Shown: positions 5,648 through 63,904 of the stretch, piece by piece | How the letters are laid out: every line of letters starts with the position of its first letter | Position numbering within the stretch: position 1 is the stretch's first letter | NCBI GenBank assembly: GCA_937897615.1 | Contig: CALCNO010000046.1 | Span: 9,463 to 73,462 of the forward strand | From: an uncultured Anaerolineaceae bacterium | Lineage (GTDB): Bacteria > Chloroflexota > Anaerolineae > Anaerolineales > Anaerolineaceae | Direction: 5' to 3' | DNA: 64,000 nt | Program-made: the position numbers and the translations under genes | The notes under the pieces: model-generated | What the model was told of the DNA's origin: nothing | Seen by the model: the letters and a program-made list of their open reading frames with translations, nothing else | The model's database searches: none

Positions 5648-5983
5648 TCAGGAACTGGCCTCGATGGTACATTCTTTGTGGTCGATGGGCTGGTCGTCTT
5701 CGAAAAAGGTTTCGCAGTGCAGTGTGATGGGCAAGGGCGGGTTGACGCTGCGGAGGTGCAGCGTGAAATCCACCTGCAGCTCAGAACAGTTGATAATGAA
5801 CGAGCGCGCAATGTGGGCACCGTTGGCGTCTTCCAGCCAAAAGGCCAGGTTGGGGTGGTCATTGCCTTCATTCAGGCGGATAGTGACCCTGGCTTTGTTT
5901 TCGGGTTTGAGCACTCCTTCCAGGCCGGCGATGGTGTTATTGCCGTTGTGGGGTTCTTGTGCGGTTGGGTTTGAATTTTCCAT
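5648..5983 (-). CDS. Hypothetical small protein (111 aa, no signal peptide, no recognisable motif)
   Basis: ORF fits exactly between the DUF1015 gene (9-nt gap) and the M23 gene (8-nt gap) on the same strand. No homology that I can recognise. Confidence 0.45.
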   Translation of the reverse strand: MENSNPTAQEPHNGNNTIAGLEGVLKPENKARVTIRLNEGNDHPNLAFWLEDANGAHIARSFIINCSELQVDFTLHLRSVNPPLPITLHCETFFEDDQPIDHKECTIEASS

Positions 5984-5992
5984 AGCCTCTCG

Positions 5993-20243: not shown

Positions 20244-20247
20244 TCTT

Positions 20248-21123
20248 TTACTTGGATAAGTAGAACACGAGCAGCACTGCAATTCCCCATAAAACCACGG
20301 TGATCTGCAAGGGGCGGTCACTGATTAAGAGGTCTTCCGGTTCCCCGCCTTTTTTGCCGATTTGCATCAATGAGAGGTAACGAAAAATGCCATAAAGCAC
20401 AAAGGGAATGGTCAGCATCATGGTGTGGTTTTCCGGCAGGTTGGGTGCTGAAAAAGTGTACAGCGAATAGGCCATGATGGTAGTCGCCGATACTACTGTG
20501 ATCAACTGGTCGATCAGGTCAAGGGAGTAGCCTGCCAGCACCTTGCGGTGCGAAGTGGTGTTCTCCGGCACCAGCACCAGCAGTTCGGTGCGGCGTTTGC
20601 CGAGGCCGATGTAGAGAGACAGCAGGGTCATCACCACATACAGCCAGGGAGAGAAACGTGCCACCTCAATTACGGAAACACCAACCGCCACGCGCAGAAC
20701 AAAGCATGCCGCAATGACCAGTAAGTCAATCAACGGGATGTGCTTGAGCCATTTCGAGTATGCTAGGTTCAGCAGGAAGTATGCCAGAAAGAATAGGAAA
20801 GTATGCAGGTTCAGCAGGTAAGCGCCGGCATGGGCGAGGATGGCAAGAAGAATAGCGGTAGCTACGGCTAACTTTATGGAAAGCTTCCCTGACGCAATCG
20901 GGCGGTTCTTTTTGACCGGGTGCAGTTTATCAGCTTCCCGATCCATAATGTCGTTAATGAGGTACACGCTGCTCGCCAGAAGGCAGAACAGAGCAAAGGC
21001 AATCGCCGTGCGTGCCAGCGACGGAATTTCAAACAGTTTGCGGTCAAAAACCAGCGCCGCAAAAATAAACATGTTTTTTAGCCACTGTTTGGGGCGCATT
21101 GCCTTAAAAAGGTATTTAATCAT
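20248..21123 (-). CDS. UbiA-family prenyltransferase resembling decaprenyl-phosphate 5-phosphoribosyltransferase (DPPR synthase)
   Basis: Polytopic. NDIMDREADKLHPVKKNRPIASG first Asp-rich motif, and a C-terminal GGEPEDLLISDRPLQ segment like the Rv3806c subfamily (as I recall that sequence). Confidence 0.7.
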   Translation of the reverse strand: MIKYLFKAMRPKQWLKNMFIFAALVFDRKLFEIPSLARTAIAFALFCLLASSVYLINDIMDREADKLHPVKKNRPIASGKLSIKLAVATAILLAILAHAGAYLLNLHTFLFFLAYFLLNLAYSKWLKHIPLIDLLVIAACFVLRVAVGVSVIEVARFSPWLYVVMTLLSLYIGLGKRRTELLVLVPENTTSHRKVLAGYSLDLIDQLITVVSATTIMAYSLYTFSAPNLPENHTMMLTIPFVLYGIFRYLSLMQIGKKGGEPEDLLISDRPLQITVVLWGIAVLLVFYLSK

Positions 21124-22020: not shown

Positions 22021-23820
22021 ATGAGCATCGACCGGATTCGTAATTTTTGTATTATTGCCCATGTGGATCATGGAAAATCCACGCTTGCCGATCGCATGCT
22101 GCAGATCACCGGCACTGTCTCAGACCGCGAAATGGTAGAACAGGTACTGGACTCGATGGACCTGGAACGCGAAAAGGGCGTTACCATCAAAGCTTCGGCA
22201 GTGCGCATGAAGTACAACTACAAGGACACAGAGTACGAACTCAACCTGATCGATACGCCCGGGCACGTGGACTTTAATTACGAGGTGAGCCGTGCTCTTG
22301 AGGCCTGTGAGGGAGCATTGCTGGTGGTGGATGCCACCCAGGGAATCGAAGCGCAGACGCTGGCGAACCTGTACCTTGCGTTGGAATCCAACCTGGCTAT
22401 CCTGCCGGTGATCAATAAAATCGATCTGGCCTCTGCACGCCCGGATGAGGTGGCCGAGGAAATTGAGGCGCTGGTGGGTACGCCGGCGGAATCCATCCTG
22501 CGCGTTTCTGCCAAAGATGGTGTTAACGTAGAGAGCGTACTCAAGGAGATCGTTGAGAAGATTCCACCCCCCGCAAGAGATCTGCAGGCGCCCCTGCGGG
22601 CGTTGGTTTTTGATTCGCATTACGATTCTTACAAGGGTGTGGTGGCTTACATCCGTGTCATGGAAGGGTTTCTCCAGACCACCAACGTTGTCCGCATGAT
22701 GGCCACCGGCGCCGATGTAAAGCCCGTCGAAATCGGTGTGTTTGCTCCAGGGATGACGCCCATTGGCGAACTTGCTGCCGGAGACGTGGGCTATGTAGCC
22801 ACCGGTTTGAAGACGGTCAAGGAATGCCGCGTGGGTGATACGCTCACCCTGGCGGCCAACCCGGCAGAAAAACCGCTGCCCGGCTACCGCCACCCCAAGC
22901 CGATGGTATTTGCTGGCATCTTCCCTGTGGAGGGCGAAGATTACGGCGAACTTAAGGATTCCATCGAAAAACTGCAACTGAACGACGCTTCGCTGGTATA
23001 CGAGCCGGAAACCTCACAGGCGTTGAACTTTGGTTTTCGCTGCGGCTTTCTCGGCTTGTTCCACATGGAGATCATCCAGGAGCGCCTCGAACGTGAGTAC
23101 AACCTGGACATTGTGGTCACGGCCCCCAGTGTGGAATACGAGGTGCAATTAGCAACAGGAGAAACGGTGCTGGTGTCCTCACCGGCAAAGCTGCCGGATG
23201 AAGCATTGATTGCCGAGGTGCGCGAACCGTGGATGCGCCTGGAGGTGATCACCCCTACCGAGTTCTACGGAACGATCATGGAGTTGGTGACCAAACGCCG
23301 CGGCACCTTCATCTCGCAGGACTACCCGGCGCCCAAGCGTGTGCAGCTGAACTATGACATTCCGCTCTCTGAGTTGATTGTGGATTTCTTTGATGATCTG
23401 AAATCGCGTACGCGCGGGTATGCCTCCATGGATTACCACTTTTTGGAATATCGGCCCGGCAGCCTGGTGAAGCTTGAAGTGCTGGTAGATGAAGAGCCGG
23501 TGGATGCGCTGGCGGCAATTGTGCATAAAGAAGATGCCTATCACAAGGGGCAGTATCTGGTCACCAGGCTAAAGTCGCTGATTCCACGGCAGATGTTTGA
23601 TGTTGCCATCCAGGCCTCGGCCAGCGGGCGGGTGATTTCCCGTGCCAATGTGAAAGCACTGCGCAAGGATGTGCTGGCTAAGTGCTACGGCGGTGACATT
23701 ACCCGTAAGAAAAAGCTGCTGGAAAAACAAAAACGAGGCAAGCGCCGCATGAAAATGGTGGGCGATGTGGAAATCCCACAGGAAGCCTTTATGGCAGTGC
23801 TGCGCCTGGAAGAGGATTGA
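22021..23820 (+). CDS. lepA: Elongation factor 4 (LepA)
   Basis: [19 protein letters not shown]1 motif, [12 protein letters not shown], and the characteristic LepA C-terminal domain. Confidence 0.97.
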
Positions 23821-24833
23821 TGAAGAAAAAGGGAATCCCAAACTGGCTCAAGATCGTCCCGGGAGTTTTATTTAGCATACTGGCGGTGCTTGCGGTATTG
23901 AAGTTCGTAAATCCGGATGACTTGAAAAACGCGTTTTCCACGGTGAGTATCAAATTCATCCTGATGATTGCGGCCATGAATTTGATTAGCCTGCTGCTGC
24001 GCGGCAAGGCATGGCAAACCATCCTGGACAAGAAAATTAGCTTTTGGGATGCTTTCTTTGGGGTGAGTGAGGGGTATTTCCTTAATAACATCCTGCCGTT
24101 CAGGGCAGGGGAATTTGGGCGCTCCTTTTTTGTGGGGCGCAAGTCTGGCCTGGGAACCTTCTATACGCTTTCCAGCATTGTCATTGAGCGCGCCTTTGAT
24201 ATTGCCTTTGCTGCACTGCTGATCGTGGCCACGCTGCCCAACTTGACCGGCATGGAATGGGCCAAACCGATTGCGGTTGTAGCGCTTGTGCTGGTGTTCA
24301 TTGGCATGGTGTGTCTTTTTTTGCTTACCCGCTACAAGGAAAAGGTGCTGGGCTGGATCAGCCAGCACGAGGGCAAATCGCGTTTCTTTTCCATTGTGAT
24401 TCCTGTGGTTAAAAACCTGATCGAGGGGTTTTCCACGATCAAGCGTCCGGCGCAGTTCTTTCTTTCCCTGCTCTGGATTGCGCTTTGCTGGGGTGTTTGG
24501 TCTGCATTGTATTACCTGACAGTAATCCAGATATTGCCTGGGGAACCACTCTGGACGGGTGCGTTTATCGCCAGCGTGTTGGCACTTGGCATTGCCGTCC
24601 CCTCTGCGCCGGCAGCTCTGGGTGTATTTGAGGCCGCTATTACCGGCGCGGTGGTTCTGCTGGGGGGCACCACCGGCAGCGCATTTGGCTATGCCATGAT
24701 CGTCCACCTTATTCACTTTGTGGTAGCTGGCATATTGGGCATGTGGGGGTTGTCCCGGGATCAGGTCAGCTTTTCAACTTTGGTCAATGACGTGATGAAG
24801 AGAAGGGAATCTTCTCCAGAACCAAGGAGTTGA
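23820..24833 (+). CDS. Flippase-like polytopic membrane protein (LPG_synthase_TM / UPF0104 family)
   Basis: ATG overlaps the lepA TGA (TGATG). ~8 TM helices. Motif ILPFRAGEFGR is typical of the lysylphosphatidylglycerol-synthase TM region family. Confidence 0.65.
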   Translation: MKKKGIPNWLKIVPGVLFSILAVLAVLKFVNPDDLKNAFSTVSIKFILMIAAMNLISLLLRGKAWQTILDKKISFWDAFFGVSEGYFLNNILPFRAGEFGRSFFVGRKSGLGTFYTLSSIVIERAFDIAFAALLIVATLPNLTGMEWAKPIAVVALVLVFIGMVCLFLLTRYKEKVLGWISQHEGKSRFFSIVIPVVKNLIEGFSTIKRPAQFFLSLLWIALCWGVWSALYYLTVIQILPGEPLWTGAFIASVLALGIAVPSAPAALGVFEAAITGAVVLLGGTTGSAFGYAMIVHLIHFVVAGILGMWGLSRDQVSFSTLVNDVMKRRESSPEPRS

Positions 24834-24836
24834 GAT

Positions 24837-25865
24837 ATGAAAAACTTTACATTGATTACAGGTGGAGCGGGGTTCATTGGCTCCAATTATGCTGCTCGCT
24901 GTTTGCAGCGAGGCGAGGCGGTCAGGATTTTTGATAACCTTTCCCGCGCTGGCGCGCCGTTGAACCTGCGCTGGCTTGAAGATACCTTTGGCAAGGGGTC
25001 GTTTGAATTGATCCAGGGGGATGTGCGCGACGCCGAAGCCGTCACGAAAGTGGTCAGGGGCGCCAGCCGCATTTTGCACCTGGCTGCCCAGGTGGCGGTA
25101 ACTACTTCTGTCACCGACCCGGTGACCGATTTTGCCATCAACGCACAGGGCACCTTTAATGTGGTCGAGGCAGCCCGCAAATCCGGGACAAACCCTAAGC
25201 TGATCTTTGCTTCTACCAACAAGGTGTATGGCGGGATGGAAAATGTGCCCGTCGTGGAAAAAACCAGCCGCTACGAATACAAAGACCTGCCTTTTGGCGC
25301 AACCGAAGACCAACCGCTGGATTTTCACTCGCCCTATGGCTGTTCCAAGGGGAGCGGCGACCAGTACGTGCGCGACTATCACCGTATTTATGGACTAGCA
25401 ACACTGGTGTATCGCCAGTCCTGCATCTACGGAAGGCGCCAGTTTGGGGTTGAAGACCAGGGGTGGGTAGCTTGGTTCATCATTGCCGCGATTTTAGGGA
25501 AGCCCATTACCATCTACGGCAACGGAAAGCAGGTGCGTGACATCCTGTTTGTGGACGACCTGGTGGATGCCTATGATGCGGGTTTTGCCCGTTTGCCGGA
25601 AGTTGGTGGCCAAATCTTTAATATCGGTGGCGGCCACCAGAATACCATTTCGATCTGGTGTGAATTCCAGCCGATGTTGGAAGAATTGCTGGGGCGCAAG
25701 ATTGTTACCGCCAGTTCCGATTGGCGCCCGGGCGATCAGCCTGTGTTCATCTCCGACATTCGCAAGGCGCAAAAACGATTGGGGTGGTCTCCCAAAATCT
25801 CTGCGCAAAAGGGGATCGAGATGCTGTTCAACTGGGTCAAAGACAACCAGGCGTTATTCAAATAA
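24837..25865 (+). CDS. NAD-dependent sugar epimerase (extended SDR, CDP-paratose/tyvelose 2-epimerase-like)
   Basis: TGGAGFIGSN Rossmann motif, YGCSK catalytic YxxxK, length 342 aa. Confidence 0.8.
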   Translation: MKNFTLITGGAGFIGSNYAARCLQRGEAVRIFDNLSRAGAPLNLRWLEDTFGKGSFELIQGDVRDAEAVTKVVRGASRILHLAAQVAVTTSVTDPVTDFAINAQGTFNVVEAARKSGTNPKLIFASTNKVYGGMENVPVVEKTSRYEYKDLPFGATEDQPLDFHSPYGCSKGSGDQYVRDYHRIYGLATLVYRQSCIYGRRQFGVEDQGWVAWFIIAAILGKPITIYGNGKQVRDILFVDDLVDAYDAGFARLPEVGGQIFNIGGGHQNTISIWCEFQPMLEELLGRKIVTASSDWRPGDQPVFISDIRKAQKRLGWSPKISAQKGIEMLFNWVKDNQALFK

Positions 25866-25871
25866 CCCTTT

Positions 25872-27029
25872 ATGAAAATTCTGATCGTTCTGACTTATTA
25901 CCGGCCTCATATCAGCGGACTTACGATCTATGCTGAGCGTTTGGCAAAAGCTTTCGCCAAACGCGGGCACGAGGTGACCATACTCACTTCGCAGTTTGAG
26001 CCGGCGCTTGCCCGCGATGAAGTGGTGGACGGGGTCAGGATCATACGCGCTCCGGTGTTGTTCCGTTTGAGCAAAGGCGTCATCATGCCCACCTTTGGCT
26101 GGCTGGCTTCAAAACTGGTGAGCCAGGCCGACGTGATCCAGTTGCACCTGCCGCAATTCGATGCAGCCGGGATTTCGCTGCGGGGCAGGTTGTTGCGAAA
26201 ACCAACAGTCATCACTTACCATTGCGATCTCATACTGCCCCCCGGGTTGTTTAACCGCGTGGCCAATTTGGCCGTACTTTTTATGAACTGGCTGACAGCC
26301 ATTTTTACCCACCGCATTGTTACCTACACCCAGGATTACGCCGAGCATTCGGATTACCTCAAGAACAAAATGAAAAAGGTGAAGATCATCCCGCCTCCGG
26401 TGGTGCTGCCAGCTGTAAAACCAGAAGCGGTGCGCGCGTTTGCGCAGACCCACAATGCTCCCAACCGCCGCCCCGTCATTGGTATGGCCGCACGTTTTGC
26501 CACAGAAAAAGGGGTGGAGGTGCTTTTGGAGGCTTTGCCGCGCGTGCTGGAACGCTTCCCCAATGCGCTGGTGCAGTTTGTGGGGCCTTACCAGAACATC
26601 ATTGGCGAGGAGGAGTACTTCTCGCGCCTTTTGCCGCGCATTGCACAATACCAGCAAAGCGGGCATTGGCAGTTTTTAGGTTCACTCAACCCGGAACAAA
26701 TGGCTGCCTTTTTCCCCAACCTGGATGTGCTGGTGCTGCCCAGCCTTAACTCAACCGAGGCGTTCGGGTTAGTGCAGATCGAAGCGATGATGAATGGTGT
26801 TCCCTGCATAGCCTCTTCACTGCCAGGTGTGCGCCAGCCGGTTTTACGGCACGGCATGGGGCGCATCTTTCCCATAGGCGATTCGGCGGCATTGGCCGAT
26901 GCACTGATTGAAGTGCTGGCCAATAAGAAAAATTACACAACCAACCTGGTGCCATTTTCTATCTATGACCCCAACATGGTGGCACAGGATTACGAAGAAT
27001 TGTTTGCGGAACTTAAACAGAACATCTAA
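25872..27029 (+). CDS. Glycosyltransferase family 4 (GT-B, retaining type)
   Basis: N-terminal MKILIVLTYYRPHISGLTIY and the C-terminal EAFGLVQIEAMMNGVP (E-x7-E) motif. Confidence 0.85.
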   Translation: MKILIVLTYYRPHISGLTIYAERLAKAFAKRGHEVTILTSQFEPALARDEVVDGVRIIRAPVLFRLSKGVIMPTFGWLASKLVSQADVIQLHLPQFDAAGISLRGRLLRKPTVITYHCDLILPPGLFNRVANLAVLFMNWLTAIFTHRIVTYTQDYAEHSDYLKNKMKKVKIIPPPVVLPAVKPEAVRAFAQTHNAPNRRPVIGMAARFATEKGVEVLLEALPRVLERFPNALVQFVGPYQNIIGEEEYFSRLLPRIAQYQQSGHWQFLGSLNPEQMAAFFPNLDVLVLPSLNSTEAFGLVQIEAMMNGVPCIASSLPGVRQPVLRHGMGRIFPIGDSAALADALIEVLANKKNYTTNLVPFSIYDPNMVAQDYEELFAELKQNI

Positions 27030-27047
27030 CCTTGCGGAGTTGCTGCT

Positions 27048-30000
27048 GTGGCAATACTACCTGGTTCAAAAAAGGCGACGCGAAACCTGAGAGACCTGAA
27101 AATGCCGTGGGTCTGGGATATCCTGCTGATCGGCGTTTTGGCGATTGGCGCGTTCTTCCGTTTTACCGGCATCTCCTGGGACGATAACCACCACTTGCAT
27201 CCTGATGAGCGTTTTCTCACCATGGTGGAGTCAAGCATCTCTTCTGTGAAGAGCGCAGGCGAGTATTTTGATACTGCCAATTCCTCGCTGAATCCAAATA
27301 ACCGCGGCTATTCCTTCTACGTGTATGGCACGCTGCCCATTTTCATCGTTCGCTATGTGGGCGAATGGCTGGGGCAAACGGGATATGACCAGATCAACAT
27401 TGTTGGCAGAGTGCTTTCCGGCATTTTTGACCTGGGCACCATTTTGATGGTCTATTTGATCGGGCGCAGGCTGTATCGCAGTGCCCGGGTGGGGCTACTG
27501 GCGGCGCTGTTTGCCACCCTTTCGGTTTTACCGATTCAACTTTCACACTATTTTGCGGTGGATACATTTGCTAACTTCTTCGTTTATGCTGCGCTTTTTG
27601 CGGCCGTTTGCATCAGCACCGCTAAGCCCAAAATAGACGAAGCAATCTCTGCTGATCCTTCTGCGGCTGCGAAGAAATCCTGGTGGTTGCAAAACTGGCG
27701 CGAGTTTATTCCGTATGCCTTCTTTGGTTTGCTCTACGGAATGGCGCTTGCTTCCAAGGTGAGCGTTTATGCCCTGGCATTAGCCCTGCCTTTGGCTGCG
27801 CTTGTGTACTACCTTAACCTGCCGGAAGAAGACCGTGCGCAGGCCGTTCCATACCTGATCCGCAATCTGGTGCTGGCAGGCATTATCGCTTTCATTACGT
27901 TCCGCGTTTTCCAGCCGTATTCCTTCAAAGGCCCCGGCTTTTTTGGCCTGGGGATCAACCAGGGTTGGCTCAACAGCCTGAAGGAACTCAAAAATATCAG
28001 CAGCGGCAATGTGGACGTGCCGTATGCGTTGCAGTGGGCGCGCCGCCCGATCACCTTTGCCATCACCAACATGGTCAAATGGGGGCTGGGGCTGCCGCTG
28101 GGGCTGGCAGCCTGGGGCGGCTTCCTGTGGATGGCGTGGCGTTCCGTCAAAGGGGATTGGAAACGCCATTTGGTTGTCCTGTTTTGGGTTGCTTTTGTCT
28201 TCATCACCCAATCGCTCAATCCGGTGAGGGCAATGCGTTATCAACTCCCGGTATATCCGGCGCTGGCGTTGATTGCCTCCTGGATGATTTTCAAGCTCTG
28301 GGAGACCCAGCCGCGCAAAGTACGCAAGATCACCAATTTGAACATTAATTGGAATCGCATTTTCTCGGTACTCATCGCTGTGGTCACGATTGCCGGTAGC
28401 GCTTTGTGGGCTTTTGCATTTAGCCGTATTTATACCCGGCCGGTCACGCGGGTTGCCGCCAGTGAATGGATCTATGGGCACATTCCCGGCGCCATTAACT
28501 TGCAAGTGGATCCGGATTCCGGGATTCAATACATGCAGCCCGTGGCCTATCAGAACTCGGCGTATATCTCTGCTGATTCACCATACATTTACGGTATTAC
28601 CCCGTCTCAGGATGAAACTGTTACCAGCTTCACCATAGAACATGTGCTGGCTTCTCAGGCCTATGCAACGCCGGTATCTTTCGAGGTCTTCATCCGTGAA
28701 GCGCAGGGAAACGGCATGCTCTACAAAGGTGTCGGATTCTCTCAATCCCTGTTTGATACTTCTGCTGACGCCCAGGGCGGCAAGGTGGAAATCACCTTTG
28801 TGGACGGTGTGCGTTTGCAGAAGGGCCATTATTACGAAATTGTGCTCGATGCTGCCGAACCCGGGGTACTGCTCAAAATTTCTGGCGGCGCCTGGCTTGA
28901 ACTACGCTCTGGCTCTACAACGGCCATTCAGTATTTACCTGAGCCGGTTTTTCGGCTGACTGAGAATAACCCCTTCCAGACCACTTTTTCGGCGCAGAAC
29001 AATGGCAGCGTCTCTTTGATTCAATTGGGCCATATTGTGGATATTCTGGGGCTGCCAGATGCCAAGACGGTGACAGTTTCGATCATTGACCCCGCCAACC
29101 CCGACCAGCCGATTGGTTATGGGGAGCTCAAGGATCCCTTCCTGCCGGTTGATGACCCGCGCGGCGATTCGCGCTGGATCGAGCTTGAAAAGCCTGCCGT
29201 GCTTGAAAAAGGAAAGAGTTACACCCTTCTGCTGACGATGGAAGGCGCTAAAGGCGCACTGGGGCTTTTCAATGATGTTCTGGTGATGGAATCCACATGG
29301 GATGATGCCATCCCGCTGGGACTTTCCGGTTATGGCCCGTTTGGGTATGAGACGGGGATCTATGGAAACAACCGTAATCTGGAGCTTTACTGGAACGATA
29401 ATGAGGACAAGCTGCAAAGGTTTTACTCCACGCTGGATCAATCGGATGTGATTGTGATCACCTCCAACCGCCAGTGGGGAACTACCGTGCGCGTGCCAGA
29501 ACGCTACCCACTGACCATACAATACTACCGCTCGCTGATGGGATGCCCGGAAGGCGAAGACACCATTAAGTGTTACGCAGATGCTCAGCCGGGTATGTAT
29601 CAGGGCCAGCTTGGTTTTGAGTTAACGGCGGTATTTGAAAGTGACCCAAACATCGGAAGTTTTAAGATCAATGACCAGTTGGCCGAAGAAGCCTTTACCG
29701 TATACGACCATCCCAAGGTGTTGATCTTCCAAAAGACGGATAATTACCATCCCGCAACGATACGGGAAATTCTCGGCAGTGTGGACCTCAGCCAGGTGGT
29801 TCAACTCACCCCTGCCCAGGCAAGCAAGTATGAAGGCAATCTTTATCTGAGCGACAGCGCCCGGCAAACCCAAACGGATGGGGGCACCTGGTCGGAGTTG
29901 TTCCCGGCAGATTCGCCTCTCAATCAGCACCCCTGGTTGGCGATGGCTGCCTGGTATCTTTTGATTGCGCTGTTGGGCTGGCTGGTGTACCCAATTCTGC

Positions 30001-32369
30001 GGGTTGTGCTCAAAGGGTTGCCGGACAAAGGTTACCCGTTTGCCCGCATCACCGGCCTGCTATTGCTGGCTTACACAACCTGGCTCATCAGCTCTGTTGG
30101 CGGCACATTCTCACGCCTTACCATACTGCTTTGTCTTTTGGCATTGGTGCTGCTCAGTGCGTTCCTGGCGTTTAAAGATCGCCGGAACTTCAAAGCCGAG
30201 ATCGCAGCAAGGTGGAAATACTTCCTGAAAGTGGAAGCGGTGATGCTTCTGCTTTTTGCTGTCATGCTTTACATCCGCTGGAATAACCCGGATTTATGGC
30301 ATCCGTGGCGCGGCGGCGAAAAGCCCATGGACCTTTCCTACTTTACGGCAGTGTTGAAGAGCACTGTCTTCCCGCCGTATGATCCCTGGTATGCAGGCGG
30401 ATACATCAATTATTACTACTTTGGCTTTGTGATCGCCGCAGTTCCAACAAAACTGCTGGGGATTGTTCCGTATGTTGTGTACAACCTGATCATCCCCACC
30501 TTCTTTGCCTTGACCGGCCTGGGGGCGTTCAGCCTCGGTTGGAATCTGCTCCATCGCCGCTCAAAAGACGATGAGCCTTCAGTGGATGAATCCAGGGCAT
30601 CCGAAAGGCGGAGTTTTACCGCCGGCCTTATCAGCACATTCCTGGTGCTGATCGTGGGCAACCTGGGAACGGTGCGTATGATCAGCCAGGCGTTCCAAAA
30701 ACTGGTGGCTCCCGGCGGGGTGCTCGATGGCGCGACTCTGGCGCAACACTTTGAGTGGTTCTTCAAGGGGCTGGCGGCTTTTGCCAAAGGCGGCGTGGAA
30801 TTGCCAATTGGCTGGGGCGAGTGGTACTGGACGCCTTCGCGCGCTCTTCCCGGGGATACGATCACCGAATTCCCGTTTTTCACCTTCACCTATGCCGACC
30901 TGCACGCGCACATGCTGGCGTTGCCGATCACGCTGCTGGTATTGGCACTGGCCCTGTCCTTTATTTTTCAGCACTGGCGATATGAGGGAGCGACCAACAA
31001 GGGGCACATCTTGCAGGTTGGCCTCACGCTCGCTTTTACTGGCTTGATCCTGGGCGCTCTCAAAACCACGAATACGTGGGACTGGCCTACCTATCTGGCG
31101 CTTGTCAGTGTGGCGGTCATTTTCTCGGTATTCAAGTACGGGGATGTGCCGGGCTGGTTCTTCCCGCGCAGAAAAGCCTGGCTGCGCAAGGGTTTGATGA
31201 GCATTGGGATCATCGGGGTCATTGCCGCGTTTTCTGCGTTATTCTTCCTGCCTTTCTCGGCGAATTATGCCCAGGCGTATGGCACGCTTGAAAAGTGGAC
31301 CGGGGATCACTCACCACTGGGTTCCTACCTTGTCCATTGGGGCTTACCCTTCTTCCTCATCGTCAGTTGGTTCGTCTGGGAAACGCGCCAGTGGATGGCC
31401 AGCACACCGGCTTCTGCCCTTGAGAAAAGCAAACCCTATCTGATTTATCTGGAAATCCTTGCCATCCTTTTCTTTGTCATCCTGGCCTTGCTCACCATGC
31501 TTGGCATCAAGATCGGCTGGCTGGTGGGGCTTCTGGCGGTCTGGGACCTGCTGCTTCTGCTGCGGCCGGGGATCAGCGATGAGAAACGCATTGTGCACTT
31601 TATGATCGGCACGGGGCTTGTTCTCACGCTCTTCGTCGAGTTATTTGTCCTTGTGGGCGATGTGGGCAGGATGAACACCGTTTTCAAATTCTATTACCAG
31701 GCGTGGACACTGTTCAACATCAGTGCAACTGCTGCGCTGGTATGGCTTATCCCGGCTGTAAAGAATACCTGGAAGGAACGCAATGCGGCGATCTGGCAGG
31801 TTGTGCTGGCGTTTCTGTTGATCGCGGTATATTTGTACCCCGTCACCGCCGCTACTGATAAGATGCGCGACCGCATGTCCGAATCTACCCCCAAAACTCT
31901 CGATGGCCTTGAGTTTATGAAGACCTCCACTTATTGGGATATGGATCGGCAGATGGACCTCAGCCAGGATTATGCTGCTATCAAGTGGATGCAGGAGAAT
32001 GTGCAAGGCTCGCCGGTGATCGTGGAAACGAACACTGTGGAATATCGCTGGGGCAATCGTTTTACCATCTATACTGGACTGCCGGGCGTTTTGGGCTGGA
32101 ACTGGCATCAGCGGCAGCAGCGCGGCGCGCTTGATTACAATGGCATCGCCAGCCGCCTGGAGGAAATACCGGCATTCTACCTCACTGAGGATGTAAATGA
32201 TGCGGTGGCCTTCTTGAAGAAGTACAATGTTGAGTACATCATCCTCGGGCAGCTTGAACAGGCGTATTATCCAGGAAACGGGCTGCTGAAGTTTGCGCAA
32301 TATGATGGCATTTACTGGAAAGAGGTGTATCACGAGCAGGATACCGTGATTTACCAGGTTATTCATTAG
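27048..32369 (+). CDS. Giant (1773 aa) polytopic membrane protein with three parts. It has an N-terminal PMT/ArnT-like GT-C module, a ~500-aa extracytoplasmic beta-rich region, and a Chlor_Arch_YYY (DUF2298) module with a C-terminal soluble domain.
   Basis: GTG start (alternative ATG at 27102). The first loop HLHPDERF has a GT-C-like acidic motif. There are many TM helices in two blocks (27.1-28.4 kb and 29.9-31.9 kb). YINYYYFGF motif, with YYY encoded at 30411-30419. Strong paralogy to the next gene. Confidence 0.75.
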   Translation: MAILPGSKKATRNLRDLKMPWVWDILLIGVLAIGAFFRFTGISWDDNHHLHPDERFLTMVESSISSVKSAGEYFDTANSSLNPNNRGYSFYVYGTLPIFIVRYVGEWLGQTGYDQINIVGRVLSGIFDLGTILMVYLIGRRLYRSARVGLLAALFATLSVLPIQLSHYFAVDTFANFFVYAALFAAVCISTAKPKIDEAISADPSAAAKKSWWLQNWREFIPYAFFGLLYGMALASKVSVYALALALPLAALVYYLNLPEEDRAQAVPYLIRNLVLAGIIAFITFRVFQPYSFKGPGFFGLGINQGWLNSLKELKNISSGNVDVPYALQWARRPITFAITNMVKWGLGLPLGLAAWGGFLWMAWRSVKGDWKRHLVVLFWVAFVFITQSLNPVRAMRYQLPVYPALALIASWMIFKLWETQPRKVRKITNLNINWNRIFSVLIAVVTIAGSALWAFAFSRIYTRPVTRVAASEWIYGHIPGAINLQVDPDSGIQYMQPVAYQNSAYISADSPYIYGITPSQDETVTSFTIEHVLASQAYATPVSFEVFIREAQGNGMLYKGVGFSQSLFDTSADAQGGKVEITFVDGVRLQKGHYYEIVLDAAEPGVLLKISGGAWLELRSGSTTAIQYLPEPVFRLTENNPFQTTFSAQNNGSVSLIQLGHIVDILGLPDAKTVTVSIIDPANPDQPIGYGELKDPFLPVDDPRGDSRWIELEKPAVLEKGKSYTLLLTMEGAKGALGLFNDVLVMESTWDDAIPLGLSGYGPFGYETGIYGNNRNLELYWNDNEDKLQRFYSTLDQSDVIVITSNRQWGTTVRVPERYPLTIQYYRSLMGCPEGEDTIKCYADAQPGMYQGQLGFELTAVFESDPNIGSFKINDQLAEEAFTVYDHPKVLIFQKTDNYHPATIREILGSVDLSQVVQLTPAQASKYEGNLYLSDSARQTQTDGGTWSELFPADSPLNQHPWLAMAAWYLLIALLGWLVYPILRVVLKGLPDKGYPFARITGLLLLAYTTWLISSVGGTFSRLTILLCLLALVLLSAFLAFKDRRNFKAEIAARWKYFLKVEAVMLLLFAVMLYIRWNNPDLWHPWRGGEKPMDLSYFTAVLKSTVFPPYDPWYAGGYINYYYFGFVIAAVPTKLLGIVPYVVYNLIIPTFFALTGLGAFSLGWNLLHRRSKDDEPSVDESRASERRSFTAGLISTFLVLIVGNLGTVRMISQAFQKLVAPGGVLDGATLAQHFEWFFKGLAAFAKGGVELPIGWGEWYWTPSRALPGDTITEFPFFTFTYADLHAHMLALPITLLVLALALSFIFQHWRYEGATNKGHILQVGLTLAFTGLILGALKTTNTWDWPTYLALVSVAVIFSVFKYGDVPGWFFPRRKAWLRKGLMSIGIIGVIAAFSALFFLPFSANYAQAYGTLEKWTGDHSPLGSYLVHWGLPFFLIVSWFVWETRQWMASTPASALEKSKPYLIYLEILAILFFVILALLTMLGIKIGWLVGLLAVWDLLLLLRPGISDEKRIVHFMIGTGLVLTLFVELFVLVGDVGRMNTVFKFYYQAWTLFNISATAALVWLIPAVKNTWKERNAAIWQVVLAFLLIAVYLYPVTAATDKMRDRMSESTPKTLDGLEFMKTSTYWDMDRQMDLSQDYAAIKWMQENVQGSPVIVETNTVEYRWGNRFTIYTGLPGVLGWNWHQRQQRGALDYNGIASRLEEIPAFYLTEDVNDAVAFLKKYNVEYIILGQLEQAYYPGNGLLKFAQYDGIYWKEVYHEQDTVIYQVIH

Positions 32370-32386
32370 GTTGGGATGGGATACCG

Positions 32387-34963
32387 TTGAGCGATTTCCT
32401 AGCGTTTCTTAGCTGGTATTTGGTGATACTTTTGGTCGGCCTGCTTTCGCTGCCGATTGCCTTTCGCCTTTTTTCACGCCTGGGAAGCAGGGGCTATGCG
32501 CTGATCCGTCCGATCAGCCTGCTGGTGTGGGGATACGTTTTCTGGCTGTTATGTTCACTGGGAATCTTGCAGAATGACCTGGGGGGTGTGCTGCTGGCTT
32601 TGGCTGCGCTGCTGCTGTTTTCTGTGTTGCTTTTGCGCAAAGGCAAGTGGGCAGAGTTAAAGCAGTGGTTAAAGGACAACTGGCGCTTCATACTTGTTGC
32701 TGAAGTTGTCTTCCTGGTCTTGTTCGCCGGCTGGGCAGTGGTGCGCGCGGCCAACCCTGATGCGGCTTACACCGAAAAACCCATGGAGTTGGCCTTTATT
32801 AATTCCATCCTCAAATCAGAGGCTTTCCCCCCGCAGGATCCCTGGCTTTCGGGTTATTCGATCTCTTACTACTATTTTGGCTACGTGCTGGTTTCGATGC
32901 TGATACGGGTAACGGGCGTGGCGTCTTCAGTGGCATTCAACCTGAGTTCCGCATTGTGGTTTGGTATCACCGGAATGGCGGCGTATGGGTTGGTGCATGA
33001 TCTCCTGTGGGCCTGGAAAGGCAGAACTGCTGCTGGCCAAGCTGGCAGCAAAAAGACTGCTGGTTTTGCCCGCCTGGGTGCTCTGCTGGGACCTTTCTTC
33101 CTTCTGCTCATCGGTAACCTGGAAGGGTTTCTGGAATTATTGTATGCGCGCCACGCTTTTTGGAAGGTTGGCGCGGACGGCACCCTGGCCTCCCGATTCT
33201 GGAATTGGCTGGGTATTTTGGAATTGAACACTCCGCCGACGCAGCCGCTCTCCTGGCTGCCAAACCGCACCGCCGGGTGGCTGTGGTGGCGCGGCTCACG
33301 CGTGATCCAGGATTTGAGCCTTTCCGGCGGGAACATTGAAGTTATTGATGAATTCCCATTCTTTACATACCTGATCTCAGACCTTCACCCGCACCTGCTG
33401 GCAATGCCGTTTTGCCTGCTGGCAATTGCACTGGCACTGAATGCCTTTCTCTCACGGGATGAGCAGAGCTTCCCGTTGCCGATTTCTACCTCCTGGCTCA
33501 AGAACTGGCAGGCGTGGCTGACGATCCTTGCACTAGGCAGCCTGGCGTTTTTTAACACCTGGGATTTTCCCATCTACGTAGGCCTGTATGCCCTGGTGGT
33601 GATTTACAAGCGTATCCTGGAGAAAGGCTGGGCCTGGAGGAGAGCCTGGGAGTTCCTTCTGTGCGGGTTGTATCTGGGTATTGGCGGCATTGTCCTGTTC
33701 CTGCCTTTCTACCTGGGGTTCCAGTCACAGGCCGGTGGATTGTTGCCCAGCCTGGAATACATTACCCGGGGCGTCAATTTTTGGGTGATGTTTGCCTGCT
33801 TCCTGAGCCTGATCCTGATCTGGCTGGCCTGGCAGATCAAACGTCGCGAACTTGCCTTCGACTGGAAGAAGAGCCTGAAGATTGTTCTTTTTGGGGTATT
33901 GGGTTTATTCCTGCTTTCACTGGCATGGGGGTGGGTTGTTCTTGGGTTAGGCGGGCTGGGAGCGGCCCTGCTGCAAAACCAAAGCTCCTTGCTGGCATCT
34001 CTGGGAGCGAAGGCCTCGATGGGAGGACAATTATTTGCTTCAGTGCATGATAATTTTCCAACCTCAATGATCTTGCAGGAGGCGATTTTCAGGCGGGTGA
34101 CCTCGCCGGGAACCTGGGTCACATTAACGCTAATCCTCATCGGCACGGTTGGCTTCATTGCCGGCATTTCTCGCACCACTAAGGCAGAGGAGCAGCCACA
34201 GCGCAGCGCTGATGCAGCATGGCAGCCGCCTAACATTAAGATATTCATCCTGTTGTTGATCCTTTTGGGAACAGGATTAACCCTGCTCCCTGAGTTCTTC
34301 TACCTGCGCGACCAGTTTGGCTGGCGCATGAACACGATCTTCAAGTTCTATTTTCAGGCCTGGGCGCTTTGGTCGCTGGCAGCGGCCTTCATCAGCGTGG
34401 AATTGTTGAGCACGCTCAAACGCTGGCGCTACGCTGCCTTTTCACTTTTCTGGACGGCGTTGGTGGTAGTGAGCCTGGCTTACCCGGTGCTGATGGTATT
34501 GAACAAGACCAATAACTTTACACCGGCTGAGTGGACACTGGACGGCGATGCCTATATTGCCCGCTATACGCCTGACGAATATGCTGCGATGCAATGGCTG
34601 AAAGACCAGAATCTTGGCATTGTCGCCGAGGCGGTTGGCGGTAGTTACTCTGATTACGCGCGCGTGTCCACCAGAACCGGCTTTCCTACCGTGCTTGGCT
34701 GGCCAGGCCACGAGAGCCAGTGGCGTGGCGGCGCCACGGAAATGGGCAGCCGGGAACAGGATATCCGGCGCCTTTATGAAACAGACATGCCCGAGGAAAT
34801 GTTTGCAATTCTGAACAAATACGACATTTGCTATGTTTACCTGGGGAACCTGGAGCGCGTACAATATGTTGTCAATCAGGGGAAGTTCGATGCCTGGTTG
34901 AGTGTTCTGTATTCAAACAATAGCGTTATTATCTATCAAGTTCCCGCAAATAATGGAGAGTAG
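32387..34963 (+). CDS. Chlor_Arch_YYY (DUF2298) polytopic membrane protein, 858 aa
   Basis: TTG start after GGGATGGGA. Motifs shared with the C-terminal half of the giant upstream protein: EKPMEL, FPPQDPW, ISYYYFGY (YYY at 32867-32875), EFPFFTY..DLHPH, FNTWDFP, MNTIFKFYFQAW, and the C-terminal TLDG...VLGWPGHESQWRG domain. Confidence 0.8.
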   Translation: MSDFLAFLSWYLVILLVGLLSLPIAFRLFSRLGSRGYALIRPISLLVWGYVFWLLCSLGILQNDLGGVLLALAALLLFSVLLLRKGKWAELKQWLKDNWRFILVAEVVFLVLFAGWAVVRAANPDAAYTEKPMELAFINSILKSEAFPPQDPWLSGYSISYYYFGYVLVSMLIRVTGVASSVAFNLSSALWFGITGMAAYGLVHDLLWAWKGRTAAGQAGSKKTAGFARLGALLGPFFLLLIGNLEGFLELLYARHAFWKVGADGTLASRFWNWLGILELNTPPTQPLSWLPNRTAGWLWWRGSRVIQDLSLSGGNIEVIDEFPFFTYLISDLHPHLLAMPFCLLAIALALNAFLSRDEQSFPLPISTSWLKNWQAWLTILALGSLAFFNTWDFPIYVGLYALVVIYKRILEKGWAWRRAWEFLLCGLYLGIGGIVLFLPFYLGFQSQAGGLLPSLEYITRGVNFWVMFACFLSLILIWLAWQIKRRELAFDWKKSLKIVLFGVLGLFLLSLAWGWVVLGLGGLGAALLQNQSSLLASLGAKASMGGQLFASVHDNFPTSMILQEAIFRRVTSPGTWVTLTLILIGTVGFIAGISRTTKAEEQPQRSADAAWQPPNIKIFILLLILLGTGLTLLPEFFYLRDQFGWRMNTIFKFYFQAWALWSLAAAFISVELLSTLKRWRYAAFSLFWTALVVVSLAYPVLMVLNKTNNFTPAEWTLDGDAYIARYTPDEYAAMQWLKDQNLGIVAEAVGGSYSDYARVSTRTGFPTVLGWPGHESQWRGGATEMGSREQDIRRLYETDMPEEMFAILNKYDICYVYLGNLERVQYVVNQGKFDAWLSVLYSNNSVIIYQVPANNGE

Positions 34964-34966
34964 ACT

Positions 34967-36643
34967 TTGGCTGCAGAAGAGATGAAGAAACCGCGTGTGG
35001 CAGTAGAGACTGCTCTTTATTTTGCCCTGCTCCTTTTTGCGGTACTGTTGCGCTTTATCGGCCTGGGCGCCGTGGGGCTTTCTGACCGGGAAGCTGCGAG
35101 TGCGTTGCAGGCTCTCAGCCTTTCGAGCGGCAGCGAAAGCCTGATCGGCTCACAGCCGGGCTACATTGGCCTTACGACAGGATTATTTGCTTTGTTTGGC
35201 GGCACGGGTTTCTGGGCGCGTTTTTGGCCGGCGGCCTTCGGTTCATTGCTCGTGCTTGTTCCGGCACTCTACCGCAAGTACCTGGGCAGGATGCCGGCTT
35301 TGCTGCTGGCTGCGTTGTTGGTCTTCGACCCCCTGATGGTCAGCCTTTCCAGAACGGCAGCAAGTTCAATGATGGGCATTACCTGTCTGTTGGCCGGCCT
35401 GGGGTTCCTGCTCTTGCGCAGGCCGGTGCTTGCCAGCTTATGCTGGGGAGTGTTCCTCAGTGCTGGCAGCGAGATCTGGCCGGGCATGGCGGCGATTTTG
35501 CTCTCTTGGTTTGCTTTCCGCTATCTCTTTGCCGGGGAGTCCCAAACACAACTGGATTGGAAAAAGCTGTTGTTTCCCGGATTGGTGCTTTTTGCATTGA
35601 TTACCACGCAATTTCTGTTGTATCCCAATGGCGTCAGCGGTTTTGGTTCCAGCCTGGTGGACTATTTGCAGAGTTGGGCTTCAAAGAGCGGCATTGATTT
35701 AGGCCACTTTCTGCTGGAGATAGTGCTGCTTCAACTTCCTTTGATGGTTTTTGGCCTCATCGCGGTGGCCAGCGGGATTTTCAAAAAACACAAATCGTAC
35801 TGGTTCCTTGCCACCTGGTGGGGATTAGCTTTTATCCTGGTGCTGGTTAACCCTGCGCGCAATCCTTCCTTGATGGGGTGGGCGACCATCCCGGCACTGT
35901 GCCTGACAGCGCTGCTGCTATCCAATTACTTTGAACACATTCACTTTGACAATCGTTGGATCGGGTACGGGCAGATTGTGTTTAGTTTTTTGATGTTCAC
36001 CATTGCTCTTTTGTATCTTATGAATGTGCTTAACTTCCCGGATACCGACCCGGTGCTCTTCAGGAACAAAGTGCTGGCGGTTTTCCTGCCGTTGATCTTG
36101 CTGGCTGCGGTAACGGGTTTGTTTAGCTGGGGCTGGAATTCCACTGCCGCCAAACATGGCTTGCTGCTCACACTCTGTACCCTGGGCGTTCTTATGATGC
36201 TGAGTAACGGCTGGAAGGCCACTGGCTGGACCTCCCCGGCGGAGATGCAGTTGTGGCGTGGAGAGCAGACTGTGATTGGGGACAAGGTGCTGATGCAGGA
36301 GGTTGCCAACCTGGGGCGCTGGACGCATGGCCGTGCGGATGTCCTCAAGGTTGAAATTGCCGGGCTGGATTCTCCCGCGCTTGACTGGGCATTAAGGAAT
36401 ATCAATGGCTTTGAGCACTCAGAGCAGGTGAATTCCAGGACTACTGTTGAGGCCTTTATTACAACCCCCGACGCGCTTATAACTACCGAGGCTTCTTACC
36501 GCGGGCAGGAAATACTCTGGTCAACAATCCCGGATGTGCAGGCCTTTAGCGCTTCGGATTGGGCAAAATGGATGGTGTATCGGAAAGCTCCTGTGCGTTC
36601 TGAGAAAATCGTGTTGTGGGTACGCAACGATCTGTTCAAGTGA
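34967..36643 (+). CDS. Polytopic membrane protein, PMT/ArnT-like GT-C candidate (resembles the TIGR03663-type partner of YYY proteins)
   Basis: TTG start 6 nt after AATGGAGAG. ~12 predicted TM helices. The first loop has LSDREAA, and there is a ~130-aa C-terminal soluble domain. The family assignment is by resemblance and context only. Confidence 0.55.
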   Translation: MAAEEMKKPRVAVETALYFALLLFAVLLRFIGLGAVGLSDREAASALQALSLSSGSESLIGSQPGYIGLTTGLFALFGGTGFWARFWPAAFGSLLVLVPALYRKYLGRMPALLLAALLVFDPLMVSLSRTAASSMMGITCLLAGLGFLLLRRPVLASLCWGVFLSAGSEIWPGMAAILLSWFAFRYLFAGESQTQLDWKKLLFPGLVLFALITTQFLLYPNGVSGFGSSLVDYLQSWASKSGIDLGHFLLEIVLLQLPLMVFGLIAVASGIFKKHKSYWFLATWWGLAFILVLVNPARNPSLMGWATIPALCLTALLLSNYFEHIHFDNRWIGYGQIVFSFLMFTIALLYLMNVLNFPDTDPVLFRNKVLAVFLPLILLAAVTGLFSWGWNSTAAKHGLLLTLCTLGVLMMLSNGWKATGWTSPAEMQLWRGEQTVIGDKVLMQEVANLGRWTHGRADVLKVEIAGLDSPALDWALRNINGFEHSEQVNSRTTVEAFITTPDALITTEASYRGQEILWSTIPDVQAFSASDWAKWMVYRKAPVRSEKIVLWVRNDLFK

Positions 36644-63832: not shown

Positions 63833-63857
63833 CGTTTTTCTCCAGGTTAAATTTAAA

Positions 63858-63904
63858 TAAAAAACCACCTTTGGAGCGCTGGTCAGCGTATCCTGGAGTG
63901 GTTT
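63858..63904 (-). terminator. Terminator-like hairpin plus U-tract inside the 5' leader of the SHMT-GcvT gene (possible attenuator or riboswitch expression platform)
   Basis: The minus strand reads AACCACT-CCA-GGA-TA-CGCT-GACC-AGCG-C-TCC-AAA-GGTGGTT followed by TTTTTATTT. The U-tract ends ~25 nt before the ATG, leaving room only for the Shine-Dalgarno. Confidence 0.45.

Follow-up and report, generated by a model that had tools for sequence, protein, structure and literature searches.

The stretch of DNA analysed here, hereafter called the window, comprises 64,000 nucleotides (nt) of contig CALCNO010000046.1 (assembly GCA_937897615.1, positions 9,463 to 73,462 of the forward strand) from an uncultured Anaerolineaceae bacterium. 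The listing of its open reading frames (ORFs) contains six plus-strand ORFs in tandem at 23820-36643, designated g1 to g6, which are separated by gaps of 3, 6, 18, 17 and 3 nt and code for products of 337/338, 342, 385, 1773, 858 and 558 amino acids (aa), namely a flippase-like membrane protein, a sugar epimerase, a cytoplasmic glycosyltransferase (GT) of the GT4 family and three large membrane proteins. The same six genes, the gaps and the sizes of the large proteins had been reported in an earlier note made by a model from the letters alone (the sequence-only reading) and were reproduced exactly by the listing. The locus is most likely an extracytoplasmic glycosylation system based on glycosyltransferases of the GT-C fold, which belong to uncharacterised families and include an unusual fused multi-module arrangement.

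The block sits in the core chromosome. It is preceded by ffh, rimM, dprA, a gene for a ManC-like nucleotidyltransferase, topA and greA, and then by genes for a dGTPase, an isopentenyl-phosphate kinase, a mevalonate kinase and a UbiA-family protein, all four on the minus strand, after which the plus strand carries tlyA, lepA, g1 to g6, cmk, genes coding for a C69-like peptidase and a histidine kinase, rpoC and gyrA. The GC content of the window is about 0.53-0.55. The ORF of g1 begins either at TTG 23817 or at ATG 23820, the second codon of the TTG-initiated ORF. The latter, which had been chosen in the sequence-only reading, is the better of the two and the most plausible start, as it is preceded by GGAAGAGGA and the ATG overlaps the TGA stop codon of lepA by 1 nt.

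The membrane proteins g4, g5 and g6

Gene g5 (32387..34963, plus strand) codes for an 858-aa stand-alone protein of the Chlor_Arch_YYY/DUF2298 family (hereafter YYY) with about 16 transmembrane helices, a 150-aa C-terminal globular domain and a predicted GT-C fold. Its full-length product reaches 494.2 bits against TIGR03662 (cut-off 300.25) and 365 bits against PF10060 (cut-off 27.8), and the YYY half of g4 passes the same two cut-offs with 535.5 bits (aa 962-1771) and 392 bits (E = 5e-117), respectively, so by the curated thresholds both proteins are assigned to TIGR03662/DUF2298. The two copies are paralogues with 32% identity, and the one in g4 has every invariant column of the YYY alignment, including the name-giving YYYxG motif, which reads Y161-Y162-Y163-F-G in g5 and Y1122-Y-Y-Y-F-G in g4 and is invariant in both forms. 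Since the invariant columns are kept in both, the two copies look functional. The family is represented by more than 5,119 clusters at 90% identity among the scored candidates. Papers matching the term "YYY domain" dealt with the Y_Y_Y regulator domain, which is unrelated.

Sequence and profile searches of g4, g5, g6 and their alignments against all sequences of the PDB produced noise only, and because no solved structure was reached in this way, the GT-C assignment was taken from structure prediction. The AlphaFold2 model of g5 has a predicted local distance difference test score (pLDDT) of 85.1 and a predicted template modelling score (pTM) of 0.90. Foldseek matched it with a probability of 1.0 to the PDB structures of AftA (8if8, E 7.7e-5, TM-score 0.51 on the target), human STT3B (6s7t, E 8e-5) and yeast STT3 (8age, E 1.6e-3), and all the matches outside GT-C, which were to unrelated transporters and pyrophosphatases, had probabilities of 0.2 or less. 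The last 150 residues of g5 resemble the C-terminal globular domain of the short AglB from Archaeoglobus (AglB-S2, 3vu0; probability 1.0, TM-score 0.52). The models thus suggest that the YYY family has the GT-C fold.

In its predicted fold, in the resemblance of the whole chain to STT3B and yeast STT3 and in that of the C-terminal domain to AglB-S2, g5 is similar to the STT3/AglB/PglB enzymes (GT66), from which it differs in showing an identity of 8-12%, in having three extra N-terminal transmembrane helices before the conserved loop and in lacking both a match to Pfam STT3 and, judging by the YYY alignment, the WWDYG motif of the C-terminal domain. The conserved segment past the last transmembrane helix of g5 reads E748-A-x-G-G-S-Y754...G-W772-x-x-H775-x-x-Q778-x-R780-G. 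The string GGSYSDYAR was considered as a WWDYG-like motif and rejected, D756 and Y757 being unconserved in the g4 paralogue. Lacking WWDYG in their C-terminal domain, the YYY proteins fall outside the STT3 family, and they do not belong to the Emb or Aft families either.

The topology of g5 was derived from the DSSP helices of the model together with the sequence and the positive-inside rule, with the K/R-rich loops placing the N-terminus and the conserved loops outside the cell. Three transmembrane helices would come first and a fourth would span aa 99-122, and an external loop of 40-60 residues would carry T-E130-K-P-M at the start of a short helix (aa 131-143), D151-P-W and Y161-Y-Y-F-G. 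None of the 49 YYY sequences aligned, the g4 paralogue among them, departs from E130/K131/P132/M133 or D151/P152/W153. The second long external loop (aa 242-334) would carry E322-F-P-F-F and D332-x-H334-x-H336, both invariant. R647-M-N-T-x-F-K-F-Y, in which R647-M-N-T is invariant, lies in a short loop further on, and the C-terminal domain contributes the invariant residues E748, Y754, W772, H775, Q778 and R780. The outside location of the N-terminus agrees with the presence, directly before the YYY module of g4, of a 499-aa acidic domain which is expected outside the cell. Judging by position rather than by superposition, E130, possibly with D151, is proposed to be the catalytic base of the YYY proteins, and the D332/H334/H336 cluster, likewise from its position, is proposed to be a metal or phosphate site.

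The 1773-aa product of g4 (27048..32369, plus strand) consists of three parts, all on the same strand: a membrane module resembling PMT/PMT_2 GT-C proteins (aa 1-470, 27048..28457), a large acidic soluble domain of no known family with a presumed extracytoplasmic location (aa ~462-960, 28458..29930) and the YYY/DUF2298 module (aa 962-1773, 29931..32369). The N-terminus of g4 itself matches Pfam PMT below the gathering cut-off (E = 0.0016, 18.5 bits, cut-off 22.7), and among 28 full-length homologues PMT_2 was matched by 15 (best E 3.5e-11) and PMT by five. Directly after its first transmembrane helix (TM1) there is the sequence H51-P-D53-E54-R55 (HPDER), invariant in 41 aligned N-termini, in which we see, by position and type, the counterpart of the "DE" motif that PMT and ArnT-like enzymes have. 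The module is therefore best described as a divergent PMT/PMT_2 relative rather than a scored member, related to GT-C by transitive homology only. This half of g4 is represented in the database by 2,809 clusters.

The middle domain of g4 is a hydrophilic stretch of 499 aa between the two transmembrane blocks with 63 D+E and 32 K+R residues, and its C-terminal 240 aa are very strongly conserved, with a pair of cysteines (C833 and C842) that is invariant and with SSNRQWG and EEAFTVYDHPKV, as well as EEAFTVYDHPKVLIF, as motifs. No Pfam match other than noise was obtained for it at E ≤ 1, and it may serve to bind the acceptor or as an accessory domain in catalysis.

Gene g6 (34967..36643, plus strand) codes for a 558-aa protein with a predicted ArnT-like GT-C fold and a beta-rich C-terminal domain (aa ~430-558). 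Its AlphaFold2 model (pLDDT 87.4, pTM 0.85) was matched best to ArnT (5f15, E 5.1e-8, TM-score 0.56/0.58), with further matches to ALG9, yeast and human STT3, AglB and Pmt4 and E-values ranging overall from 5e-8 to 3e-3, and its GT-C assignment comes from this structure prediction. The protein is arranged as TM1, a loop with two helices and TM2, with R29 in TM1 invariant and with D40 and E42 of a D-x-E motif, where the first loop helix (H40-53) begins, conserved in at least 90% of the sequences. The same TM1-loop-TM2 layout with D-x-E is found in the ArnT/PMT_2 enzymes (GT83, GT39), on whose representative ArnT the g6 model superposes best and whose Pfam families PMT_2 and PMT are matched by homologues of the g4 N-terminus. 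Unlike these enzymes, g6 and 41 homologues scanned with it have no Pfam match, PMT_2 included, g6 has a beta-rich C-terminal domain of its own, and the g4 N-terminus stays sub-threshold. Counted at 50% identity, the g6 family comprises 5,715 representatives at E ≤ 1e-3 and 1,667 at E ≤ 1e-30, and from the model it appears to be a large ArnT-fold family with no domain model.

The only sequence family touched by g6 is TIGR03663, presumably paired in its TIGRFAM description with the YYY family. The match covers aa 17-292 only and amounts to 40.8 bits (E 1.4e-10), far under the curated cut-off of 126.25, so g6 is regarded as a distant, sub-threshold relative and not as a member. The sequence-only reading had called the function of TIGR03663 unknown, which is outdated: NCBIfam names the family "flippase activity-associated protein Agl23", and purified Agl23 of Haloarcula hispanica translocated Man5GlcNAc2-PP-lipid in proteoliposomes and rescued the yeast rft1-delta mutant (PMC11182771). 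This raises the question of whether some of the GT-C-fold proteins, above all g6, might, in line with the role proposed for Agl23, translocate or scramble lipid-linked sugars or be non-catalytic partners for them; there would then be fewer catalytic steps than modules. The activity of Agl23 in vitro and in yeast fits this view, as does the need for another flipping protein in the genomes that have no g1. However, the score of g6 falls far short of the Agl23 cut-off, its best structural match is the transferase ArnT, and, unlike the flippase-associated Agl23, it keeps transferase-like motifs, namely a D-x-E that is nearly invariant and occupies the canonical site of GT-C catalytic residues, and an arginine of TM1 that is invariant. 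A translocase role for these proteins is considered improbable.

The GT-C core fold, whose absence from structural models had been named in the sequence-only reading as a possible refutation, was found for both g5 and g6, which are predicted by these models to be GT-C proteins at the fold level. The same reading had counted two PMT/ArnT-like and two YYY modules in g4-g6, and the count is right, with the PMT/ArnT-like pair being weaker by sequence than had been implied since both are sub-threshold. Acidic candidates are present in the first long loop of each family (invariant D53/E54 in g4, invariant E130 and D151 in YYY, and D40/E42 conserved at 90% or more in g6), their correspondence to catalytic sites being one of position only.

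A series of four or five different GT-C modules is more typical of polysaccharide and lipoglycan builders (Emb/Aft/Mpt) than of protein glycosylation. The latter nevertheless has to be considered: the PMT-like module would O-glycosylate secreted, S-layer or sheath proteins with a polyprenyl-phosphate sugar as donor, the YYY proteins would be oligosaccharyl- or glycosyltransferases acting on protein, and g3 and g1 would build and flip the lipid-linked donor. Such a system would be in line with the PMT/PMT_2 relationship and the PMT-type "DE" loop motif of the g4 N-terminus, with the fact that g5 matches AftA only slightly better than it does STT3B and yeast STT3 and carries the AglB-S2-like C-terminal domain, and with Agl23, part of an archaeal N/O-glycosylation pathway, being the closest sequence family of g6. 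These structural resemblances, at TM-scores of 0.4-0.5 among GT-C families, cannot discriminate acceptor types, though, and the YYY C-terminal domain has no WWDYG-type motif, nor is there a conserved candidate gene for an acceptor protein in the locus. Protein glycosylation is considered rather unlikely as the role of the locus.

Genes g1 to g3 and conservation of the locus

The first gene, g1 (23820..24833, plus strand), codes for a stand-alone membrane protein of PF03706 (LPG_synthase_TM/UPF0104/"PplT"), which is an accessory component and a candidate translocase of glycosylated lipids. It passes the Pfam cut-off of 33.4 with 135.6 bits (E 3.2e-39) and falls slightly short of that of TIGR00374 (42.0 bits, cut-off 43.2), and no match, MprF included, was found among all the sequences of solved structures in the PDB. 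By these scores it belongs to the MprF-flippase domain family PF03706/UPF0104, for which lipid translocation by g1 is a prediction. The family has been proposed in a preprint to consist of general lipid translocators, and the archaeal AglD is a fusion of a GT2 transferase with a UPF0104 domain (PMC5898192).

The second gene, g2 (24837..25865, plus strand), also accessory, codes for an extended short-chain dehydrogenase/reductase (SDR) with Pfam matches to Epimerase/GDP_Man_Dehyd. Among the sequences of solved structures it is closest to 9rl0 (E 4.5e-99, 335 bits) and 1orr (310 bits), with the next-best match, UDP-glucose 4-epimerase, reaching only 129 bits, which bears out its earlier label as CDP-sugar-epimerase-like. 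The entry 9RL0 is TaTyvE, a Thermodesulfatator enzyme interconverting CDP-glucose and CDP-mannose (PMC13098431, PMC7851689). By sequence, g2 clearly belongs to the CDP-tyvelose 2-epimerase family, and the predicted activity is that of a nucleoside diphosphate (NDP)-hexose C-2 epimerase of the Glc/Man type.

The third gene, g3 (25872..27029, plus strand), is a core member of the locus and codes for a cytoplasmic GT4 protein (GT-B fold, retaining-type family), a candidate primer or glycolipid synthase. It matches Pfam Glycos_transf_1 (1.2e-30) and Glyco_transf_4 (1.6e-18), and its closest solved relative is the phosphatidylinositol mannosyltransferase PimA (6e-18), an enzyme which glycosylates a membrane phospholipid. 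It reaches the cut-off of no NCBIfam equivalog, with a weak match to the GlcNAc-PG synthase model NF053787 (1.8e-10, 40 bits compared to the cut-off of 480). The domain searches thus agreed with the LPG_synthase_TM, SDR and GT4 labels given to g1, g2 and g3 in the sequence-only reading.

Conservation was assessed in a scan of one genome per GTDB species, which yielded at least 569 loci, with the counts below taken from the best 80. These are essentially all from Anaerolineae or Chloroflexota and include the cultured Ornatilinea apprima P3M-1 (L015) and a metagenome-assembled genome assigned to Brevefilum fermentans. In about 95% of the best 80 Anaerolineae loci the order GT4, PMT-YYY fusion, YYY, ArnT-like protein is kept: g6 follows g5 in 64 of 66 loci, the YYY half of g4 precedes g5 in 61 of 63, both halves of g4 are present, making up the whole fusion, in 55 of 57, g3 is located no more than 10 kb upstream in 49 of 52, and cmk follows in 60 of 63. 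Nearly all the Anaerolineae genomes examined have the locus at one and the same position in the chromosome, with four or five GT-C modules concentrated there.

Gene g3 directly abuts g4 in eight of 49 loci, as it does in the window, which has no insert at this point, and the remaining 41 have 2.1-5 kb inserted between the two. The inserts examined (L015, 2380-5481; L082, 7102-9983; L083, 6300-9903) contain genes coding for an S-adenosylmethionine (SAM)-dependent methyltransferase and an extra PMT_2 GT-C protein of ~720 aa. Comparisons of the latter with g6 and with the middle domain of g4 revealed no similarity in either case. The conserved core therefore comprises GT4 (g3), the methyltransferase and PMT_2 genes where inserted, the PMT-YYY fusion (g4), YYY (g5) and g6. 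Of the gene set put forward in the sequence-only reading, g3-g4-g5-g6 is kept, whereas g1 and g2 are accessory and most relatives carry the additional genes between g3 and g4. A lack of conservation had been named there as another possible refutation, and the outcome of this check favours the proposal.

Several further genes were seen in the relatives. A small DUF952 gene (14937-15275) is located between the PMT-YYY fusion and the YYY gene in L082, where an acyltransferase gene of PF01553 (20311-20973) also follows cmk. Brevefilum has an extra stand-alone DUF2298 paralogue away from the main locus (L064, 9509-11923; L067, 10004-12427), and in L064 a gene of the LytR-CpsA-Psr family (5851-6939) lies 2.5 kb upstream of it. 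Proteins of this family attach wall polymers to peptidoglycan, and the proximity is a weak hint towards a wall-polymer role.

Proposed pathway and comparison with known systems

The preferred reading, to which we assign a probability of roughly 55%, is that the block is the core of a pathway by which the Anaerolineae, presumably monoderm, assemble a glycan or lipoglycan outside the cytoplasm. This pathway would be fed by polyprenyl-phosphate sugars and would follow, by analogy, the logic of the mycobacterial pathways for phosphatidylinositol mannosides, lipomannan and lipoarabinomannan (PIM/LM/LAM) and for arabinan. On the cytoplasmic face the TyvE-type epimerase g2 would supply an NDP-hexose, and the PimA-like g3 would place the derived sugar on a membrane lipid to give a glycolipid primer. 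The primer would then be moved to the outer leaflet by the MprF-flippase-type g1 where it is present, and by another translocase elsewhere. Outside, four GT-C modules (the PMT-like and YYY halves of g4, g5 and g6), each taking a polyprenyl-phosphate-linked sugar as donor, would extend or branch the glycan, with an acidic residue where the first extracytoplasmic loop begins (D53/E54 of g4, E130 with D151 of YYY, D40/E42 of g6) acting as the putative catalytic base. One of the donors may be a polyprenyl-phosphate pentofuranose from the neighbouring UbiA-family enzyme. A surface glycan or glycoprotein had already been proposed in the sequence-only reading, and this proposal stands as far as the fold and the conservation of the genes are concerned; the composition of the unit had to be corrected as described above, and its product, donor and acceptor are kept here as predictions.

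The UbiA-family gene (20248..21123, minus strand) is divergently oriented, is located 2.7 kb upstream of g1 and adjoins the mevalonate kinase and isopentenyl-phosphate kinase genes. Its product reaches 250.5 bits with NCBIfam NF008977 "decaprenyl-phosphate phosphoribosyltransferase" (DPPRS; cut-off 234) and aligns with DPPRS of M. tuberculosis (8j8j, E 1.2e-41) over its full length (aa 5-281 against 17-293), including the NDxxDxxxD motif. By the curated cut-off it is thus a DPPRS equivalog, which is unexpected in a Chloroflexota genome. The gene occupies the same position in three more distant relatives (L081, L082 and L083). Enzymes of this type make polyprenyl-phosphate-ribose, the precursor of the arabinofuranose and ribofuranose donors of GT-C enzymes, and the combination of a synthase, a flippase and a GT-C enzyme with an optional SDR epimerase is an established and widespread design (PMC11127046). 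The association of UbiA, as a candidate gene, with g1-g6 is a lead only. The two kinase genes beside it (18484-20321, minus strand), coding for mevalonate kinase (TIGR00549, 246 bits) and an isopentenyl-phosphate kinase of the archaeal type (NF040647, 161 bits), belong to the alternative mevalonate pathway, here in a bacterial genome.

The genes for DPPRS, AftA and the three Emb GT-C proteins, the latter in tandem, form a cluster in M. tuberculosis. With the mycobacterial arabinan and lipomannan machinery (PimA; DPPRS Rv3806c; AftA-D, EmbA/B/C, PimE, MptA/B) the locus shares a GT4 closest to the solved PimA, large GT-C genes in tandem, AftA as the best structural match of g5, a DPPRS homologue nearby and a presumably monoderm host. 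It differs from that machinery in that no similarity of g4-g6 to Emb, Aft or Mpt could be detected by sequence, in that DprE1/E2, an Rv3807c-type phosphatase and a GtrA/SMR flippase were not found in the window, and in the presence of the PF03706 flippase-like g1, the TyvE-type g2 and two GT-C modules fused in the 1773-aa g4. A bolder version of the comparison would make YYY a new GT-C-fold family which, with its PMT-like and ArnT-like partners and the UbiA-derived pentofuranose, polymerises an essential, class-wide cell-wall polysaccharide of the Anaerolineae, an independently evolved counterpart of the mycobacterial arabinan/arabinogalactan in a presumably monoderm phylum. This version is considered distinctly unlikely.

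In outline, the parts list is also that of the three-component pentofuranose systems described by Kelly et al. in 2024 (PMC11127046), which consist of a polyprenyl-phosphate-ribose synthase, a flippase and a GT136 GT-C enzyme with or without an SDR epimerase. In contrast to those systems, the UbiA synthase here is divergent, with tlyA and lepA between it and the block, the flippase candidate belongs to PF03706 and not to MATE, the SDR is of the nucleotide-sugar TyvE type, and there are four GT-C modules of other families. The pairing of the GT4 g3 with the stand-alone PF03706 protein g1, along with the weak NF053787 match, resembles the gpgSDF/hexSDF modules (GT4, deacetylase and UPF0104 flippase), among them the gpgSDF operon of P. 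aeruginosa, where a GT4 glycosylating phosphatidylglycerol is paired with a predicted UPF0104 flippase (PMC12713373). Unlike these modules, the locus has no deacetylase, g3 scores far below the NF053787 cut-off, g1 precedes g3 instead of following it, and the pair is embedded in a GT-C cluster.

A number of points weigh against the lipid-primed glycan pathway. The TM-scores of g5 to solved GT-C structures are modest (0.31-0.39 when normalised by the query and 0.37-0.51 by the target), no profile of YYY, g6 or g4 is linked to any solved GT-C protein, and the YYY and g6 profiles compared with hhalign gave a probability of 1.8%. No functional study of DUF2298/PF10060/TIGR03662/COG5427 was found in the searchable literature. 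A phospholipid primed by the GT4 is only one of several possible acceptors, and the 64-kb window contains no GT2 polyprenyl-phosphate-hexose synthase, DprE1/E2 or PAP2 phosphatase. Both g1 and g2 are dispensable in relatives, the former missing in L082 and the latter in L018, L019, L050 and L052. The tight same-strand packing extends past the six genes, from the 1-nt overlap of lepA with g1 to the genes after cmk, and lepA, cmk, the C69 peptidase gene and, further upstream, tlyA, UbiA and the two kinase genes are equally syntenic in the relatives. As the gene order of the region is frozen class-wide, adjacency is weaker as evidence of function, and the position of UbiA, and even that of g1-g3 beside g4-g6, may reflect this frozen order.

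The start of cmk is most likely ATG 36670, 26 nt past the g6 stop codon, the genes after it are 15-58 nt apart, and tlyA and the C69 peptidase and histidine kinase genes are further close neighbours, and since the tight spacing continues into lepA and cmk, it cannot delimit an operon. Consensus scans for promoter-like and terminator-like sites gave counts at or near the shuffled expectation, with no excess over shuffled sequence. It is conceivable that there are two unrelated modules, with g1-g3 making and flipping a membrane glycolipid in a gpgSDF-/hexSDF-like modification of head groups and g4-g6 belonging to another pathway, which are neighbours because of the frozen gene order. The synteny and tight spacing of tlyA, lepA, cmk, the C69 peptidase, histidine kinase, isopentenyl-phosphate kinase and mevalonate kinase genes, equal to those of g1-g6, would be expected in that case, as would the independent coming and going of g1 and g2 relative to g4-g6 and the 2-5 kb of other genes between g3 and g4 in 41 of 49 loci, and GT4 with UPF0104 alone makes a complete known module. 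However, the inserts examined are themselves glycosylation genes (methyltransferase and PMT_2 GT-C), so the functional theme is continuous from g2 to g6, and g3 is kept near the GT-C genes in 49 of 52 loci. In addition, a published table of gene neighbourhoods (PMC8756737, appendix) places DUF2298 next to two PMT2 proteins and a Rossmann protein in an independent genome from the Chloroflexi, in a gene context unlike the one here. A juxtaposition of two unrelated modules is regarded as quite improbable.

The DUF2298/YYY and g6 families are both large and uncharacterised. Should the YYY proteins prove to be transferases, a new CAZy family would be defined, a very large set of Chloroflexota "DUF" proteins would gain a function, and there would be a handle on the surface polymer of the Anaerolineae, filamentous bacteria that rank among the most abundant of their kind in sludge, in sediments and in the subsurface and whose envelope chemistry is, to our knowledge, barely known. 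The range of the YYY family presumably includes Archaea, going by the TIGRFAM description, and the function would then extend there too. The matter is open to direct experiment in carriers that are in culture, such as Ornatilinea apprima. The locus is, without being a conceptual surprise, a solid testable lead into the envelope biology of the Chloroflexota and, likely, to a new GT family.

Other genes of the window

Ten kb upstream of the block there is a gene for a ManC-like mannose-1-phosphate guanylyltransferase (12181-13278, plus strand) with an NTP_transferase domain and a ManC beta-helix, a possible source of GDP-mannose for envelope glycans. It is followed by the gene for topoisomerase I (13289-15586, plus strand), which has an N-terminal DUF5679 domain (aa 4-43) besides the Toprim, core and zinc-ribbon domains. 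Between topA and greA, a 371-aa ORF (15681-16796, plus strand) has no Pfam match at E ≤ 0.001. No tRNA genes and no Rfam families at the gathering threshold were detected in the window. At 60707-63868 (minus strand) a 1053-aa ORF combines serine hydroxymethyltransferase (aa 95-437) with the folate-binding domain of the GcvT aminomethyltransferase (aa 652-921), which would be an unusual fusion of two one-carbon enzymes, or else two genes joined by a frameshift or by mis-assembly.

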